The notes beneath the pieces are model-generated. The model was given only the letters and a program-made list of their open reading frames with translations, was not told the origin of the DNA and made no database searches. The translations under genes were made by a program, and so were the position numbers. DNA of 64,000 bases from contig JAVVGF010000001.1 of NCBI GenBank assembly GCA_032249235.1, forward strand, positions 288,001-352,000, read 5' to 3'. This document shows, piece after piece, positions 38,896 through 51,128 of the stretch. Numbering within the stretch: position 1 is the first letter of the stretch; every line of letters begins with the position of its first letter. The stretch comes from Thermoproteota archaeon. Its GTDB lineage: Archaea > Thermoproteota > Thermoprotei > Gearchaeales > Gearchaeaceae.

Positions 38896-39648
38896 TTGGG
38901 AGACATAAAATTTAGAATAGCTCATATCTCAGATACTCATATAAGCGATTTTGGTCAATATGTTGATAGCGTATTTGAAGAAGGCGTAAAGCTCGTAAAT
39001 AAACTAGATCCTAAACCAAATATTATAGTTCATTCAGGCGATTTAACTGATAATGGCGTATTATCAGAATATAAGCTTGCTCTTGATAAAATGTCAGAGT
39101 TTGATCAAAGAATGGTAATAACAACTGGAAATCATGATCAAAGGAATTTCGGTAATTCTTTGTTTGACGAGTTTATAGGCAAATTGGACTATGAAATTAG
39201 GATAGACGATTTCCAATTTTTAATAATAAATAGTGCACAGCCAGATAGGGATGAAGGTAGAATAGGTAGGAGAAGAATGGAATGGATATCTAACACTTTG
39301 GCTAAAGACAAAATAAAAATCTTGGTTTTTCATCATCACTTGATACCTGTACCGCATTCAGGAAGAGAAGCAAATGTGTTGGAGGATGCAGGAGATATTC
39401 TTGAGATGGCTATAAGAAATAAAGTTCATTTAGTGTTGATGGGGCATAGACATGTTAGGAATGTTATAAAAGTTGAGGATCTAATATTAGTAAACGCTGG
39501 AACATTTTCATGTAGAAGAACCAGAGGAAAATTTGGTTATTCTTTTAATTTAATTGATATAACTGAAGAAAATGAAGTATGCGTACAAGAAGTTTCGATA
39601 GATTATAACAAAACAACTTTATTAAAGAAATATAGCTTGAGATTTTAA
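38896..39648 (+). CDS. Calcineurin-like metallophosphoesterase (Icc/CpdA-like)
   Basis: HISDTH, SGDLTD, GNHD, HHH, GHRH motifs all intact. Confidence 0.9.
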   Translation: MGDIKFRIAHISDTHISDFGQYVDSVFEEGVKLVNKLDPKPNIIVHSGDLTDNGVLSEYKLALDKMSEFDQRMVITTGNHDQRNFGNSLFDEFIGKLDYEIRIDDFQFLIINSAQPDRDEGRIGRRRMEWISNTLAKDKIKILVFHHHLIPVPHSGREANVLEDAGDILEMAIRNKVHLVLMGHRHVRNVIKVEDLILVNAGTFSCRRTRGKFGYSFNLIDITEENEVCVQEVSIDYNKTTLLKKYSLRF

Positions 39649-46133: not shown

Positions 46134-47369
46134 ATGTCGTCATTTAGGTTGGATGATTTAATTAGTAGATTATCTGAAAGAGCTTCGAGAATTTTTAAAA
46201 ATAGAGAAACCTTGAGACCTGATTATATTCCTGATGAACTCCCACATAGAGATAAAGAGATATACAAATTAGCTGAAATTTTATTCCATCCTTTGTTAAA
46301 AGGAGATAGACCTTCTAATGTATTCATCTACGGTTATCCAGGAACAGGCAAAACTGCTACAACAAAACATGTTTTCAAAGCTATAAAAGAAAAATTAGCT
46401 CCTAGACTTCAAGTTCCAGTTTATTGTCTTATTATAAATTGCAAAATCGACGATACTAATTATAGGATACTAAAGGAAATAAACGACTTCTTCAGTATAC
46501 CTACGCCTCATACAGGCTTATCACTAGCTGAGTTATATACCAGAATAGTTAAAGAGCTAAAGAGAAGGACAGGATTTTTCATACTTGCTTTAGATGAAAT
46601 AGATAATTTCGTGAAAAAAAGCGGTGATGAAATACTTTATAAATTAACTAGAATAAATTCTGAAGGAATCACAACAAAAGTATCCTTAGTGGGTATTACG
46701 AATGATCTTCATTTTAAAGAATATTTGGATCCAAGGGTTAAAAGTAGTCTAAGTGAAGAAGAACTAGTTTTCACACCATATACTGCAGATCAATTAAGAG
46801 ATATTTTGTATGCAAGGGCAAAAATCGCATTATATGAGGATAGCTATACAGATGGTGCCATAAATTTATGTGCTTCAATAGCAGCAAAAGAGCATGGAGA
46901 TGTTAGAAGAGCTCTAGATCTTTTAAGAGTGGCAGGAGAGTTGGCTGAGAGAAGGAATGATCCTAAAATAACTGAAGATCATGTAAAAGAAGCACTTAGA
47001 ATTATGGAGCGTGATAAGATTTGGGAAGTGGTGATTTCTTTACCTTTCCATTCAAAGCTTGTTTTATTGGTTATAGCTTATCTACAAGAAAGATTTCTAA
47101 GAGAATGTACCACGGGTGAAGTTTATGAAGAATATGTTAAAATATGCAGAGAAATTGGCCAAGAACCTCTAACTGCAAGAAGAGTTAGTGATATTATAAA
47201 TGAACTCGACATGGGTGGTCTAATAAAAGCAAACTTAACAAGTAAGGGTAGATATGGGAGAACTAAGTATATATCTTTGAGAATAGATAAGGATGAAACT
47301 TTCAGAGCTCTTAAAGAAGATGAAAGGCTTGAATTCATCATACAATCTATTAGTAGCTGGAATAGATGA
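46134..47369 (+). CDS. cdc6: Orc1/Cdc6 replication initiator
   Basis: LRPDYIPDELPHRD, GYPGTGKT, LDEID, LDPRVKSSL, HGDVRRALDLLR, C-terminal wHTH (GRYGRT). Confidence 0.95.
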   Translation: MSSFRLDDLISRLSERASRIFKNRETLRPDYIPDELPHRDKEIYKLAEILFHPLLKGDRPSNVFIYGYPGTGKTATTKHVFKAIKEKLAPRLQVPVYCLIINCKIDDTNYRILKEINDFFSIPTPHTGLSLAELYTRIVKELKRRTGFFILALDEIDNFVKKSGDEILYKLTRINSEGITTKVSLVGITNDLHFKEYLDPRVKSSLSEEELVFTPYTADQLRDILYARAKIALYEDSYTDGAINLCASIAAKEHGDVRRALDLLRVAGELAERRNDPKITEDHVKEALRIMERDKIWEVVISLPFHSKLVLLVIAYLQERFLRECTTGEVYEEYVKICREIGQEPLTARRVSDIINELDMGGLIKANLTSKGRYGRTKYISLRIDKDETFRALKEDERLEFIIQSISSWNR

Positions 47370-47907
47370 TGGAGGCTTCAAACCAGATTTTAAATATATA
47401 AAAGAAAAACCTTCTGTTCCCTTAATAGTTGTTTATTATAGAAATCATAGAATTATAGATTTGAAATTTTCTGCAATAAAAATAGATGGTTTGGATGCGA
47501 CCGAAAAATTAATTGAAATCCTTAAGCTTAAAAAACCTTCTGTCATCTTTTCAGCTGGCATCACAGTAGCTGGCTTTAATATTATAGATTTCATAAAGAT
47601 TTATGATACATTAAAAATTCCAACTATTGTTGTCTTAGATCATAAACCAAATCTAAAAAGAATTAAGGATGCAATTGCTAAACATTTGGATAATGCGGAA
47701 AAAAGGATTAGTATTATTATGAAGTATCCAAAATTTAAAAAATTCAAGAACCTTTATTATGAAAGTATTGGTATCGATGAAAAATTGGCATTGGAGCTAA
47801 TTAATTCTTTTAGAATTTTCAGTAAATATCCGGAGCCGCTTAGATTGGCTCATATGATAGCTAAATCATTGTATAAATACTCTTTAGAAAAGGAATCTCA
47901 TAACTGA
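47320..47907 (+). CDS. DUF99 family protein (endonuclease V-like / endonuclease dU)
   Basis: GIDDG, IDGLDAT, GITVAGFNIID, PEPLRLAHMIA. Start uncertain (47293/47320/47329); overlaps the cdc6 3' end. Confidence 0.85.
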   Translation: MKGLNSSYNLLVAGIDDGGFKPDFKYIKEKPSVPLIVVYYRNHRIIDLKFSAIKIDGLDATEKLIEILKLKKPSVIFSAGITVAGFNIIDFIKIYDTLKIPTIVVLDHKPNLKRIKDAIAKHLDNAEKRISIIMKYPKFKKFKNLYYESIGIDEKLALELINSFRIFSKYPEPLRLAHMIAKSLYKYSLEKESHN

Positions 47908-49290
47908 TAGATCCTTTAAATTTATCACATAGCATGAATGCCTAGGTTTTTCATCGTTTAGATAATTTATCCATGATGAATTAGAGATTAATAAACAACC
48001 ATGATAACTCGAATTACTATAAATGTCAAAATGACCACACAACATTAAATCAGGCCTTTCATCTATTATAAAAGGATCGTAACCTAAAGGAAGAAGTCCT
48101 TCAATTCTTACGTTGCTTATAAGACTCCTTCTTTTCATTACATCTTGCATAGTTTTAATCATAGCTTCTTCTAATTTTTCTAAATCAACCACATTTTCGT
48201 TGAATAGAGATTCAAAATAAAATCCATGCGTCATTAGTATTTTTCTTTCAGATATCTCAATATAAGAAGGATCTTTGAGCAGTATTAGATTCTTAAATTT
48301 AAATAAGGGTTCAGTAATTTCTTGATCGAATTCATTAAAAGGAATAGTCTGAATTAATTGGTCTCTTTCACCTGGAATAGCATAAATCGTTATATCTTGT
48401 CTTATATTACTCAATAATCCAGCAAGTTCCTCATATTGACTGTACATGTCATCAGTTATATTAAATTTGAATTTACTTTCAAAAGAAAATCCTTCAATTA
48501 AATCTCCTGTTATTAATAAATATTTTATTTTTGAAGAAATTTCTTTATATTCATCAAATTTATTATTTAAAAAGTCTATAAAATTTTTAAAAGCATCATA
48601 ATCAAATGTTTCATTGCCACATCTTATGTCAGATATACATGCAATATATATATCTTTTTCTATCTTTTTTTCTGTCGCATATTCTAAATCAGGTAGATAA
48701 ATTTTATTTACTCTTATATAATATCCTTTATCAGTTTTTATAAGTATACCATCTAATATTGCTACGTCATCTAATTTCATTTCTAAAGCTAACCGGTATG
48801 CTTCTTCTTTATACTTCGGTACTATAGCTCTAAAGCTTCCATAAGGATCTTCAAATTCTAGTAGCAACGCATCATACTTGGCGCTTTCCTTACTATACAA
48901 CATCCCAGCTATTGATATCTGTGATTTATCCAACATCTTATCGAGATCAGTAGAAGTTGTATTTGCTGTTTTGCGATGAACTTTTTCAATTATCTTTTTT
49001 AGTTTGTTAAATCTATCTTCAAGCATTAATTTATACCCCATTGTGATATCGCTTACTTCTTTTATTTCTCTTCTGTAAGTCTGTGAATTTTGTTCTTTTA
49101 AAGATAAGTCTTTTGAATATCTTTTTATTAACTCATTAACAGTTTCTTTAGTAATTAATTCATCTATATTTTTTATTTCATTTAATATTAAATCTATAAT
49201 TTCACTATCTTCTAAACTTTCTAAAATTTTTAATGCATCCTCTGTAATATAGATTTTCTCTTTATTTAAAAATTCTTTAATTTTACTCAT
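47884..49290 (-). CDS. DNA polymerase D small subunit (DP1) homolog with degenerate exonuclease motifs
   Basis: N-terminal helical domain, DRFNKLKKI, OB fold (AGM...LEFEDPYG), phosphoesterase fold with ISDIRCG/GDLIEG/PGERD/THG/CGHFD, DPFIIDERPD, LISNSSW. Confidence 0.82.
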   Translation of the reverse strand: MSKIKEFLNKEKIYITEDALKILESLEDSEIIDLILNEIKNIDELITKETVNELIKRYSKDLSLKEQNSQTYRREIKEVSDITMGYKLMLEDRFNKLKKIIEKVHRKTANTTSTDLDKMLDKSQISIAGMLYSKESAKYDALLLEFEDPYGSFRAIVPKYKEEAYRLALEMKLDDVAILDGILIKTDKGYYIRVNKIYLPDLEYATEKKIEKDIYIACISDIRCGNETFDYDAFKNFIDFLNNKFDEYKEISSKIKYLLITGDLIEGFSFESKFKFNITDDMYSQYEELAGLLSNIRQDITIYAIPGERDQLIQTIPFNEFDQEITEPLFKFKNLILLKDPSYIEISERKILMTHGFYFESLFNENVVDLEKLEEAMIKTMQDVMKRRSLISNVRIEGLLPLGYDPFIIDERPDLMLCGHFDIYSNSSYHGCLLISNSSWINYLNDEKPRHSCYVINLKDLSVMRFLF

Positions 49291-50230
49291 TTAAAGCAAG
49301 TGCTTTTAAAACTGTTATCCAAGCATTAGCTACGTTTTCAAAATTATAACCGCCTCCACCTAGAGCAAGTAGTCTACCTTTGCTTTTCTCATGTGAAAGT
49401 TTATGCAACAATTTCGTTACTTCTTTGTGCACGTTAGGAGTATAATTCAAATGTGTTAATGGATCTCCTCTCAAACCATCAGCGCCACATTGTAAAATGA
49501 TCAGTTCATAATTTTCATTGAGAATCATTTCTTCTGCTCTTTTAAGAGCTCTAAGAAATTCTTCATCTCCGCTATATGGCTTAAGAGGTATGTTTAACTT
49601 TTTGCCAAATCCTTCTCCTTTACCTCTTTCGTTTTCAAAACCTGTTCCTGGAAACAAAAATCTTCCATCTTCATGTATATCAACAAAGTATAGCTCGCCA
49701 TCTTCTTCATAAGAATAATAGACACCATCTCCATGATGAGCATCTATGTCAAAATAAAGAATTTTTTTAATACCATACTTTTTTCTTGCATACTCTATGC
49801 CAATACATATATCGTTGAAAACACAGAATCCTGAAGCTCTTTCTTTATATGCATGATGCAACCCTCCTGTTGGATTGAAAGCATGCTGAACTTTTCCTTG
49901 AAATATCGAATCTAAAGCTTCAAGGGTTGATCCTGCTGAATATGCAGATGCTTCATAAACGCCCGGATAAGCAGGCGTATCACCATAATCAAGATAGCCG
50001 CTACCAATTTTTGACAATCTTTTAACCAATTCTAAATACTCTTTTTCATGAAATAGTAAGATTTCTTCATCTGTCGCTCTTCTCGCACTCAGCTTTATTA
50101 CGATATTATTATCTAGCAATTCTTGTAATTTTTCTAAGAATATCTTATACCTATCTTCGTTCAAAGGATGAGGTTTAGGAAAATGATATCTTAAATTTTC
50201 TCCTAATACTACTCCTACTTTGCAATTCAT
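49283..50230 (-). CDS. Histone deacetylase / AcuC family deacetylase
   Basis: HP, GDTP, GGLHHA, SGFCVFND, DIDAHHGDG, FPGTG, QCGADG...DPL, GGGGY. Confidence 0.93.
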   Translation of the reverse strand: MNCKVGVVLGENLRYHFPKPHPLNEDRYKIFLEKLQELLDNNIVIKLSARRATDEEILLFHEKEYLELVKRLSKIGSGYLDYGDTPAYPGVYEASAYSAGSTLEALDSIFQGKVQHAFNPTGGLHHAYKERASGFCVFNDICIGIEYARKKYGIKKILYFDIDAHHGDGVYYSYEEDGELYFVDIHEDGRFLFPGTGFENERGKGEGFGKKLNIPLKPYSGDEEFLRALKRAEEMILNENYELIILQCGADGLRGDPLTHLNYTPNVHKEVTKLLHKLSHEKSKGRLLALGGGGYNFENVANAWITVLKALALNE

Positions 50231-50290
50231 CCCCTAATTTTAATCGATTAACGATTTTTAAATTAACATTATTAAATTATCGAGTTCAGT

Positions 50291-50310
50291 AGTAATACCT
50301 AAGTATTACT
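50291..50310. promoter_or_regulatory. Palindromic putative TF site AGTAATAC-CTAA-GTATTACT
   Basis: Inverted repeat (extends to 9 bp, 50290-50311) about 22 bp upstream of TATA CTTTATAA (50332), in the divergent HDAC / small-protein intergenic region. Same arms as the 31191 site. Confidence 0.65.
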
Positions 50311-50355
50311 ATAGAGCTTTGAAAGTAGTAGCTTTATAAAACACGTTTAGTATTC

Positions 50356-50562
50356 ATGATGGATTTCATATATCAGATTTTCAATTTATTCGTATTCGCT
50401 TCATTCATATTTATTGCTATACTTTTTGTGCTAATGGTAAGGAAACCTCTTGCTGTAATACCTTCATTTTTTACAGGAGTAGCTATTTATATTGCGACAT
50501 ATAATGGTCTCATTGCAGGTTTAGTAACTTTTCTTCTAGCAGTCCTGTTTCAAGTTAAGTAA
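50356..50562 (+). CDS. Small hydrophobic membrane protein (68 aa)
   Basis: Two or three hydrophobic segments; own TATA box. Confidence 0.65.
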   Translation: MMDFIYQIFNLFVFASFIFIAILFVLMVRKPLAVIPSFFTGVAIYIATYNGLIAGLVTFLLAVLFQVK

Positions 50563-50597
50563 TAAACATTTTATAGAGAATATCAATATTTTTAATA

Positions 50598-51128
50598 ATG
50601 GCTGTACTGGGAAAGAGCGAATTATTAAAACTTCAAGAAAAATATCATCTCATATATCCCTTCAATGAAGAATTAATAGACGGTGATAGTTTTATCTTAA
50701 CAGTTCAGCAGGATGTTGAGGTAAAATATTTAGAACATAAAAATATAATCTCTCACGAAATTGTATTTGTTCCAATTAACTTTGTCGCACATATGACTGC
50801 AAAAAGTAAATTTGGCAGATTAGGTTTGTCTTTTTTGAATGCTGCGAAAGTCCATAGTGGTTTTGTAGGAAGGATAGTTCTAGAAGTAGTTAATTTAAAT
50901 AACGAGCATTTACCCATAACTATTAAAAAAGGTGAGCCTTTCATGCATCTAGAATATATAAGAAGAGAAGGTGAGCCTTCTCCTTATCATGGTGAATATC
51001 AATTCCAATATATGAATGATGATGAGATAAGATTTTACCTTAAAATATTAAAAGAACACATTCCTAACTTCGAGTACTATTCAAAGATATGGCTAAAGAA
51101 TAAACCTCATTTACTTAAAGAATTATAA
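50598..51128 (+). CDS. dCTP deaminase / trimeric dUTPase superfamily protein (atypical motifs)
   Basis: AKSKFGRLG, VHSGFVGRIVLEVVN, PYHGEYQFQ. Confidence 0.8.
   Translation: MAVLGKSELLKLQEKYHLIYPFNEELIDGDSFILTVQQDVEVKYLEHKNIISHEIVFVPINFVAHMTAKSKFGRLGLSFLNAAKVHSGFVGRIVLEVVNLNNEHLPITIKKGEPFMHLEYIRREGEPSPYHGEYQFQYMNDDEIRFYLKILKEHIPNFEYYSKIWLKNKPHLLKEL

Follow-up and report, generated by a model that had tools for sequence, protein, structure and literature searches.

A remodelled DP1 and a miniaturised DP2 point to a catalytically dead PolD in a family of Thermoprotei

The textbook view is that Crenarchaeota simply lack PolD, the heterodimeric DNA polymerase made up of a small subunit, DP1, and a large subunit, DP2. 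Incomplete versions of the enzyme are known in other archaea, and Kazlauskas et al. (2020) reported three archaeal groups with an inactive DP1 and/or no active DP2 (PMC7544198). One of these, labelled 'Nitrososphaeria' and represented by two or three metagenome-assembled genomes, is said to combine an inactivated DP1 with the absence of both an active DP2 and a family-B polymerase (PolB) that carries a C-terminal domain, and the authors' account of this group draws no conclusion from it (PMC7544198). According to a 2025 study, DP1 is kept in the absence of DP2 in just two archaeal lineages, the Aenigmarchaeota and the Baldrarchaeia (PMC12680538). In Pol epsilon, the C-terminal half of Pol2 together with Dpb2 is essential for assembly of the CMG helicase, and the catalytic half is dispensable (PMC6265327, PMC9022971). 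Here we describe a gene for a DP1-like protein in a 64,000-nt stretch of a Thermoproteota archaeon of the Gearchaeaceae (positions 288,001 to 352,000 of contig JAVVGF010000001.1, assembly GCA_032249235.1; 'the window'). With moderate confidence, we read its product as DP1 of a PolD that still has both subunits yet is catalytically dead, kept as a non-catalytic replisome scaffold or helicase cofactor.

The window comes from a genome of 1.43 Mb in 18 contigs (G000, 91% complete), one of nine genomes (G000–G008) in the three genera of its family, f1. The gene is an uninterrupted open reading frame (ORF) for 468 amino acids. Its best match in the PDB is Pyrococcus abyssi DP1 (5ihe_A; phmmer, 3.4e-47, over residues 77–441). 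The Pfam model DNA_pol_E_B (PF04042) matches residues 216–420 (4.3e-9) with 36.6 bits, above its cut-off of 29.1, Metallophos matches residues 216–424, and the NCBIfam DP1 equivalog NF003118 spans residues 4–440 (6.7e-65) with 219.9 bits, below its cut-off of 445. DP1-like orthologs, with 39–63% identity to the window protein, are present in all nine f1 genomes. In a tree of 20 DP1 sequences (IQ-TREE, LG+C20) they are monophyletic (100/100) on a long stem, and the split between f1 plus a second family of the same order, f2, and all canonical sequences has a support of 100/98, to which long-branch attraction may have contributed. A profile search with the f1 alignment returned only f1 members and one canonical fragment, and the f1 profile also matches Pol delta B-subunits (1.7e-9). 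Taken as a whole, the matches and the gene order support the window protein being a DP1 ortholog; no second, intact DP1 was found in G000.

The active site was compared residue by residue with that of P. abyssi DP1. The motif SDIH is replaced by SDIR, GDVVD by GDLIE, PGNHD by PGERD, AHG by THG, RHLAP by RSLIS and GHVH by GHFD. At the eight canonical positions (seven metal ligands and the catalytic His), D221, D263, H355 and H420 are kept, whilst R223, E308, R309 and D422 are changed, and so the complete calcineurin-like residue set (DxH, GD, GNH[DE], H, GHxH) is not present. The combination R/E/R/D was absent from the five canonical relatives and four outgroups inspected. The catalytic His of the GNHD motif in P. 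abyssi DP1, H451, is reported to be indispensable to the nuclease (PMC4996933); its replacement by Ala gave the H451A protein crystallised as 6HMF (PMC6355029). Because an Arg stands in place of this His and another in place of one ligand His, the DP1-like protein has very probably lost proofreading. The changes do not look like drift. SDIR, PGERD and THG are identical in the nine f1 proteins, and seven of the eight ligand or catalytic positions are invariant among them, against 76 of 468 columns overall (binomial P = 2e-5). On this ground the former catalytic pocket is remodelled and constrained. The phosphoesterase (PDE) domain is also the most conserved DP1 domain within f1 (mean pairwise identity 0.53, 56 of 245 columns invariant). 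The replacements E308 and D422 could still bind metal, and the invariant arginines would be compatible with a pocket that binds without hydrolysing or that retains some single-metal chemistry.

A sequence-only reading of the window had already called this an intact, full-length DP1-type gene lying near cdc6, with the substitutions above in SDxH, GDxxD, PGNHD, RRHLAP and GHxH and only the HG motif kept, and the alignment agrees on all of these. The metallophosphoesterase that it had named for comparison (38896–39648, plus strand) does have intact motifs (Metallophos 2.9e-18; DTH, GD, GNHD, GHRH). Loss of exonuclease activity, as it had proposed, is very probable from the Arg at the H451 position, and the absence of an intact paralog in G000 is as it had allowed. 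Its statement that most metal ligands are replaced was somewhat overstated: half of the eight positions have changed and half are kept, and E308 and D422 could act as ligands. The description of the protein as eroded does not fit seven invariant site positions in nine family members.

The same reading had suggested that the protein was kept without DP2 and bound to a PolB. The standard DP2 models (PF03833 and TIGR00354) indeed match nothing in G000, and a full-length DP2 model match is absent from every f1 member. In one f1 genus, however, the DP2 model gave a weak match, limited to its final 80 positions, inside an ORF of 751 amino acids, which is collinear with Thermococcus kodakarensis DP2 in three short stretches. 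Its ortholog in G000 (E = 4.2e-58) has 729 amino acids and lies on another contig than the DP1-like gene (C4:10846-13032, minus strand). When a profile of eight f1 members was aligned with canonical DP2 of the same class (hhalign), residues 343–736 corresponded to 641–1143 with a probability of 99.4% (E = 2.3e-21). Searched against the PDB (hmmsearch), the profile gave DP2 of T. kodakarensis (6knb_B, 2.2e-20) and of P. abyssi (6hms_B, 6.8e-19), again in three collinear stretches. The N-terminal 260 residues match the N-terminal domain of DP2 (probability 88%, E = 2.8e-6, against 39 canonical DP2 sequences), and the ten best feature matches in the ESM Atlas are all DP2 families. By these alignments, the 729-residue protein is a degenerate DP2 ortholog, and the suggestion that DP1 is kept without DP2 is not supported. 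The remnant, as we call it, is found in eight of the nine f1 genomes and is missing from one that is 67% complete. None of the eight reaches the DP2 Pfam cut-offs, NF011302 gives 21.3 bits against a cut-off of 1791, and a full Pfam scan returned just zinc-ribbon noise and sub-threshold DP2 domains; in public databases the protein is annotated as hypothetical, with no Pfam domain. G003 (74% complete) has two near-equal DP2-like copies (C201:287-2473 and C67:758-2944), which may reflect duplication, strain heterogeneity or assembly redundancy.

The remnant is about a third shorter than canonical DP2, which has ∼1140 residues. In an alignment of 14 sequences, canonical residues ∼300–640 have no counterpart in it, including the GFRIRYGR block of the first double-psi beta-barrel (DPBB-1), and two smaller canonical blocks are also gone. 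Read from the alignments, DPBB-1 is therefore lost, and the two-barrel catalytic core of DP2 is not found complete. The catalytic loop RRNCDGDED has changed to sequences such as EIIADNLIR, and no acidic residue in it is conserved among the eight f1 members. The first two aspartates of CDGDED correspond to P. abyssi D956 and D958 (a constant offset of 9 relates the T. kodakarensis and P. abyssi chains), residues reported as critical for polymerase activity (PMC4996933), and both are lacking in all eight remnants. Since the DPBB-1 barrel and both catalytic aspartates are lost, the remnant is predicted to be unable to polymerise.

Several parts of the DP2 plan have been kept: the N-terminal domain, the zinc fingers Zn-I, Zn-II and Zn-III, the DP1-binding C-terminal domain, and the DxLLNxS helix behind the dead loop. 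All twelve zinc-finger cysteines (C347, C350, C359, C362, C372, C375, C384, C387, C647, C650, C663 and C666) are invariant across 14 DP2 and DP2-like sequences. The remnant ends in a PIP-like tail, EKLDKFF, where E721, L723, D724 and K725 are invariant within f1; the tails of DP2 in canonical relatives are LDDYM, LEKFM and similar. This tail and Zn-I/II are the best-conserved segments of the remnant. In T. kodakarensis, DP2 uses its hydrophobic C-terminal PIP motif to bind first primase and later PCNA (PMC8096248).

Both genes sit where canonical PolD genes sit in relatives. The order cdc6, Endo_dU and convergent DP1 is seen at all f1 loci long enough to show it and also at four loci of families f3 and f6 with a canonical DP1 (L015, L019, L020 and L021), in keeping with the proximity to cdc6 proposed earlier. 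Canonical DP2 of f3 and f6 has a PcrB/GGGP-synthase gene directly upstream; in f1, that gene lies upstream of the remnant too, with a 200-residue membrane gene in between (L025:3675-4277, minus strand, on C4 of G000). This membrane gene has no Pfam match, overlaps the DP2-like gene by 4 nt and is an insertion seen only in f1. The DP2-like gene is followed by a DUF2070 membrane-protein gene (L025:3-1292, minus strand, also on C4). As the two genes occupy the positions of canonical DP1 and DP2, they have decayed in place and are neither paralogs nor imports.

The polymerase that would do the synthesis is of family B. G000 has one detectable canonical PolB, of 866 amino acids (NF004417 'DNA polymerase I', 1072 bits against a cut-off of 780), which is of the PolB1 type and, read by eye, has exonuclease motifs I–III and polymerase motifs A and C intact. 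PolB1-type enzymes of ∼870 residues are present in all nine f1 genomes. A second PolB type of ∼800 residues (about 225–245 bits to PF00136), present in the 16 other relatives scanned (G009–G024), was found in none of the nine, and tblastn gave no PolB paralog in G000. The C-terminus of the G000 enzyme carries no Cys-rich domain, either of the CysA/CysB or of the DP2-CTD-like kind, as a eukaryote-type partner of a B-subunit would, and this speaks against the DP1-like protein being bound to it. Weak PolB-like ORFs of 570–710 residues were noted in G001 and G004–G006. G000 also has PCNA, the primase large subunit and a GINS-family ORF. The single PCNA_N match (a 256-residue ORF) adjoins the primase large-subunit gene (G000:C4:95773-97601), and the PriL match in G000 is reported with one internal TAA; many Crenarchaeota have three PCNA paralogs.

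Both genes are under purifying selection. As most pairwise dS values are saturated or undefined, only the closest pairs are usable: dN/dS is 0.096 for the DP1-like gene in the least saturated pair (G008–G005, dS 0.43) and 0.143 for the DP2 remnant in its closest pair. The selection across relatives supposed by the sequence-only reading is thus borne out for DP1. Invariant columns number 76 in the DP1-like family and 45 in the remnant family. A scan of 120 genomes of the class found DP2 or a remnant in seven of eight further f1 genomes (besides G000), two of three in f2, four of four in f3 and the single genome of f6, and in none of 104 genomes from eleven other families. In f3 and f6 both PolD subunits are canonical. 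In f2, DP2 is of full size (1031 amino acids) with the loop CNGQED, in which both critical aspartates are replaced (by N and Q), whilst DP1 is nearly intact (SDLH, GEHD and GHVH; only the Asn and the His of RRH are changed). For these reasons f2 looks like an intermediate, with a polymerase-dead PolD whose exonuclease may still be active. A putative order of polymerase death, then exonuclease-site change and shrinkage, then loss, is what the present-day states suggest.

The scaffold reading is the likeliest because the parts retained are the contact modules of canonical PolD, namely the DP1 N-terminal domain, the OB–PDE body of DP1, the DP2 C-terminal domain with Zn-III and the PIP-like tail. 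The DP1-like protein would partner the 729-residue remnant, the dead heterodimer would assemble through the DP2 C-terminal domain with its Zn-III finger, and the pair would act at the fork as a scaffold or helicase cofactor, with DNA synthesised by the PolB1-type enzyme. In T. kodakarensis the DP1 N-terminal domain binds Gins51, and PolD connects primase with GINS and also raises the ATPase activity of CMG (PMC8096248, PMC9023282); T. kodakarensis is the only species for which this domain is known to bind GINS, and the same would apply to f1 by extension.

Several observations weigh against this scheme. A Gins51 ortholog was not identified in G000, where the Sld5 domain occupies the C-terminal half of the sole Sld5-family ORF. 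We infer binding between the two proteins from their co-occurrence in eight of nine genomes and from the retained C-terminal domain and Zn-III. The KxRRxP loop of Zn-III, which binds DP1 (PMC6355029), has one Arg left in seven of eight remnants and is gone in G004, and this degradation could weaken the interface. The DP2-like gene is surrounded by membrane and lipid genes. Four ligands are kept and two of the replacements are carboxylates, so that one of the metal sites may persist, with some capacity for hydrolysis. That R223, E308 and R309 never vary within f1 suggests that the pocket has gained a specific function, which a pure scaffold would not explain. All of the genomes compared are incomplete assemblies (67–95% complete). 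Finally, in one hot-spring metatranscriptome run that covered a small share of the stretch, contigs fell on parts of the cdc6 and deacetylase genes and none on the DP1-like gene, a result uninformative either way.

Other explanations were considered. If the pair, or the DP1-like protein alone, had taken on a new function outside the replisome, for example in repair or regulation, with the two new arginines binding a 3′-end or phosphate, the invariance of R223, E308 and R309 would be accounted for, as would the setting of the DP2-like gene and the apparent operon with a deacetylase-family gene in the window's genus. Fast evolution would fit as well, since G000 and G001 are 88% identical in Cdc6 but 63% in the DP1-like and 41% in the DP2-like protein. 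However, the ancestral position beside cdc6 is kept throughout f1, the N-terminal domain and PIP-like tail are modules for contact with the replisome, and the deacetylase linkage is confined to one genus, and we hold a function elsewhere to be possible but rather improbable. A slightly smaller chance is given to the remodelled site still being an enzyme, a single-metal or altered phosphoesterase or nuclease whose DNA-binding partner would be the remnant. As D221, D263, H355 and H420 are kept and E308 and D/N422 could serve as ligands, nothing may be missing from metal site 2 (D, E, H, H); the PDE domain is the best-conserved domain, with its near-invariant site, and the sister family f2 retains SDLH, GEHD and GHVH. 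Against this, the equivalent of the essential H451 (PMC4996933) is Arg in all nine proteins, the motif I His is also Arg, and no active DP1 inspected has such a pattern, so that catalysis here is unlikely.

It is very unlikely that DP1 acts alone, like a eukaryotic B-subunit on the C-terminus of a family-B polymerase. The failure of the standard DP2 models in G000 would suggest it, and there are precedents in the Aenigmarchaeota and Baldrarchaeia, whose DP1 binds fusions of PolB with the DP2 C-terminal domain (PMC7544198; PMC12680538). In f1, however, eight of nine genomes encode a DP2 ortholog in which the C-terminal domain and Zn-III are conserved, the sole canonical PolB of G000 has neither a Cys-rich end nor, by tblastn, a paralog, and the 2025 study reports that DP1 failed to bind PolBs without a DP2-derived C-terminal domain (PMC12680538). 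That both genes are non-functional relics on the way to deletion is scarcely credible, even though PolD is entirely gone from the 104 genomes of the other eleven families and DP2 has shrunk so far: the ORFs of both genes are intact across three genera at 25–40% identity, dN/dS is 0.10–0.14, and the two families retain their 76 and 45 invariant columns.

Compared with canonical PolD (P. abyssi and T. kodakarensis; PDB 5ihe, 6hms, 6knb), both subunits are homologous and collinear; DP1 has the same N-terminal, OB and PDE domains, DP2 the same N-terminal domain, three zinc fingers, C-terminal domain and hydrophobic tail, and within the class both genes have the same genomic positions. The f1 proteins differ in that DP2 is without its DPBB-1 region and its two catalytic aspartates (729 against ∼1140 residues), DP1 has R, E, R and D for H, N, H and H, and both fall below the NCBIfam cut-offs (220 against 445 bits, and 21 against 1791 bits). 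The replicative polymerase paralogs retained after loss of catalytic residues are a further parallel. Inactivated archaeal family-B polymerases of this kind were reportedly described by Rogozin et al. in 2008; they belong to another polymerase family and are single proteins, whereas in f1 both subunits of a heterodimer are affected.

The 'Nitrososphaeria' group is described as sharing an inactivated DP1, the lack of an active DP2 and the lack of a PolB with a C-terminal domain (PMC7544198), but it belongs to another class, and the 120 genomes of the window's class yielded no protein of this kind. In the Aenigmarchaeota and Baldrarchaeia, as in f1, DP1 is kept, DP2 polymerase activity has been lost and replication falls to a PolB (PMC7544198; PMC12680538); there the DP2 C-terminal domain is fused to PolB, whereas in f1 it is on a free-standing remnant and PolB is without it. 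The C-terminal half of Pol2 with Dpb2 offers the same outline, that is, an inactivated polymerase module and a zinc-finger C-terminal domain together with an inactivated DP1 homolog. In f1 the dead module is a relic of the two-barrel DP2 rather than of a family-B fold and is free of any fusion to an active polymerase, and the essential role in helicase assembly belongs to Pol epsilon and is for f1 an analogy only. The arrangement had been proposed as previously undescribed. This does not hold for inactive DP1 as such, groups of which have been known since 2020 (PMC7544198). The literature searched held no paper on this family of Thermoprotei, on a miniaturised DP2 or on a wholly dead PolD heterodimer, so that, among the papers searched, what is new is the miniaturised DP2 with a remodelled DP1 in this lineage.

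The features of the DP1 locus are listed in Table 1, together with the PolD genes of f2. The stop of the deacetylase-family gene overlaps the start of the DP1-like gene, which suggests that the two are co-transcribed as an operon; this gene is upstream of DP1 at L007, L008, L039 and L043 only, that is, in the window's genus and not in the other f1 genera. In the 367-bp spacer beyond it (50231–50597), a small hydrophobic ORF of ∼68 residues was read by eye (50357–50563, plus strand). No evidence of a replication origin was seen beside cdc6, since the 78-bp upstream spacer holds just one 12-nt repeat pair and the GC skew tracks the gene strand.

Table 1. Coordinates of the DP1-like gene, its parts and its neighbours in the window, and of the f2 PolD genes
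Feature	Position	Strand	Evidence or remark
DP1-like gene, PolD small-subunit ortholog, 468 amino acids, remodelled phosphoesterase site	47884..49290	-	ORF, Pfam, NCBIfam, PDB, gene order
N-terminal helical domain, residues 1–60, counterpart of the canonical DP1 N-terminal domain	49111..49290	-	NF003118 from residue 4; aligned with canonical DP1 N-termini
OB fold, residues 126–198	48697..48915	-	Pfam PF01336 7.2e-5, below cut-off; aligns with the P. abyssi DP1 OB region
Phosphoesterase (PDE) domain, residues 216–424	48019..48645	-	Pfam Metallophos and DNA_pol_E_B
Motif I, SDIR; D221 kept, ligand His replaced by R223	48622..48633	-	Alignment; R223 invariant in 9/9
Motif II, GDLIEG; bridging D263 kept, second Asp replaced by E266	48490..48507	-	Alignment
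Motif III, PGERD; ligand Asn replaced by E308, catalytic His (P. abyssi H451) by R309	48361..48375	-	Both invariant in 9/9
Motif IV, THG; H355 kept	48223..48231	-	Alignment
RRSLIS for RRHLAP; His replaced by S389, position variable (S/Y/N/E) within f1	48115..48132	-	Alignment
Motif VI, GHFD; H420 kept, last His replaced by D422 (D or N within f1)	48025..48036	-	Alignment
cdc6/orc1 gene, conserved neighbour marking the ancestral DP1 locus	46134..47369	+	Pfam Cdc6_C 4.5e-29, Cdc6_lid 1.2e-26
Endo_dU (PF01949) gene between cdc6 and DP1, convergent, overlaps the DP1 3′ end by 24 nt	47293..47907	+	Pfam 6.1e-45
Histone-deacetylase-family gene; stop overlaps the DP1-like start by 8 nt	49283..50230	-	Pfam 1.7e-80
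dCTP-deaminase-like gene	50598-51128		
f2 DP1 genes, genomes G009/G010	L017:1216-2742, L018:1270-2805		
f2 DP2 genes, genomes G009/G010	L037:1484-4579, L038:1649-4744		

Dead PolD is probably wider than f1 and maybe widespread. The best 150 matches of the remnant profile in a protein library, a sample biased towards look-alikes of the query, include 137 proteins of at least 600 residues. One or both aspartates are missing from 26 of the 137 (one of these a false call, six from f1 and one of the f2 type), 90 have both, and 21 could not be anchored; examples without aspartates are P0013, P0026, P0031, P0032, P0048, P0052, P0072, P0101, P0103, P0132 and P0145. Many metagenomic DP2 homologs without catalytic aspartates keep the zinc fingers and a C-terminal PIP-like tail. 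Three library proteins without aspartates are also shrunken (685–715 residues), and for two of them (P0015 and P0019) cluster members are labelled by NCBI as hypothetical proteins of Nitrososphaerota or Nitrososphaeria archaea; the third has no name attached. We infer that these three belong to the published 'Nitrososphaeria' group. Read by eye, their DP2 is shrunken in a different way from that of f1, with a possible DPBB-1 relic kept, and a profile search for this type gave no match in 401 genomes of the phylum. PF04042 missed DP1 in G001 (same genus as the window, 95% complete) despite an ortholog 63% identical to the window protein, and surveys with family models thus under-detect this diverged DP1.

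In any survey by hidden Markov models, f1 would pass for a third lineage with DP1 and without DP2, yet it keeps a cryptic DP2, a relic of the kind that presence/absence tables built on curated thresholds overlook. One class offers PolD in staged states (canonical, polymerase-dead, miniaturised and absent), and f1 separates the structural role of PolD from catalysis in a natural system. A more far-reaching view, which we put forward tentatively and think less than probable, is that PolD has an ancient, selectable non-catalytic job at the fork (coupling primase/PCNA to CMG and/or activating the helicase) that outlives catalysis. The families f1 and f2 would then be living intermediates in the crenarchaeal loss of PolD, passing from polymerase death (f2) through a changed exonuclease site and a miniaturised DP2 (f1) to loss, as an independent archaeal replay of Pol epsilon, and the invariant R223, E308 and R309 would line a pocket that holds a 3′-end or phosphate without hydrolysing it. 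The lineage makes it testable whether the essential function of PolD is partly non-catalytic, like that of Pol epsilon.

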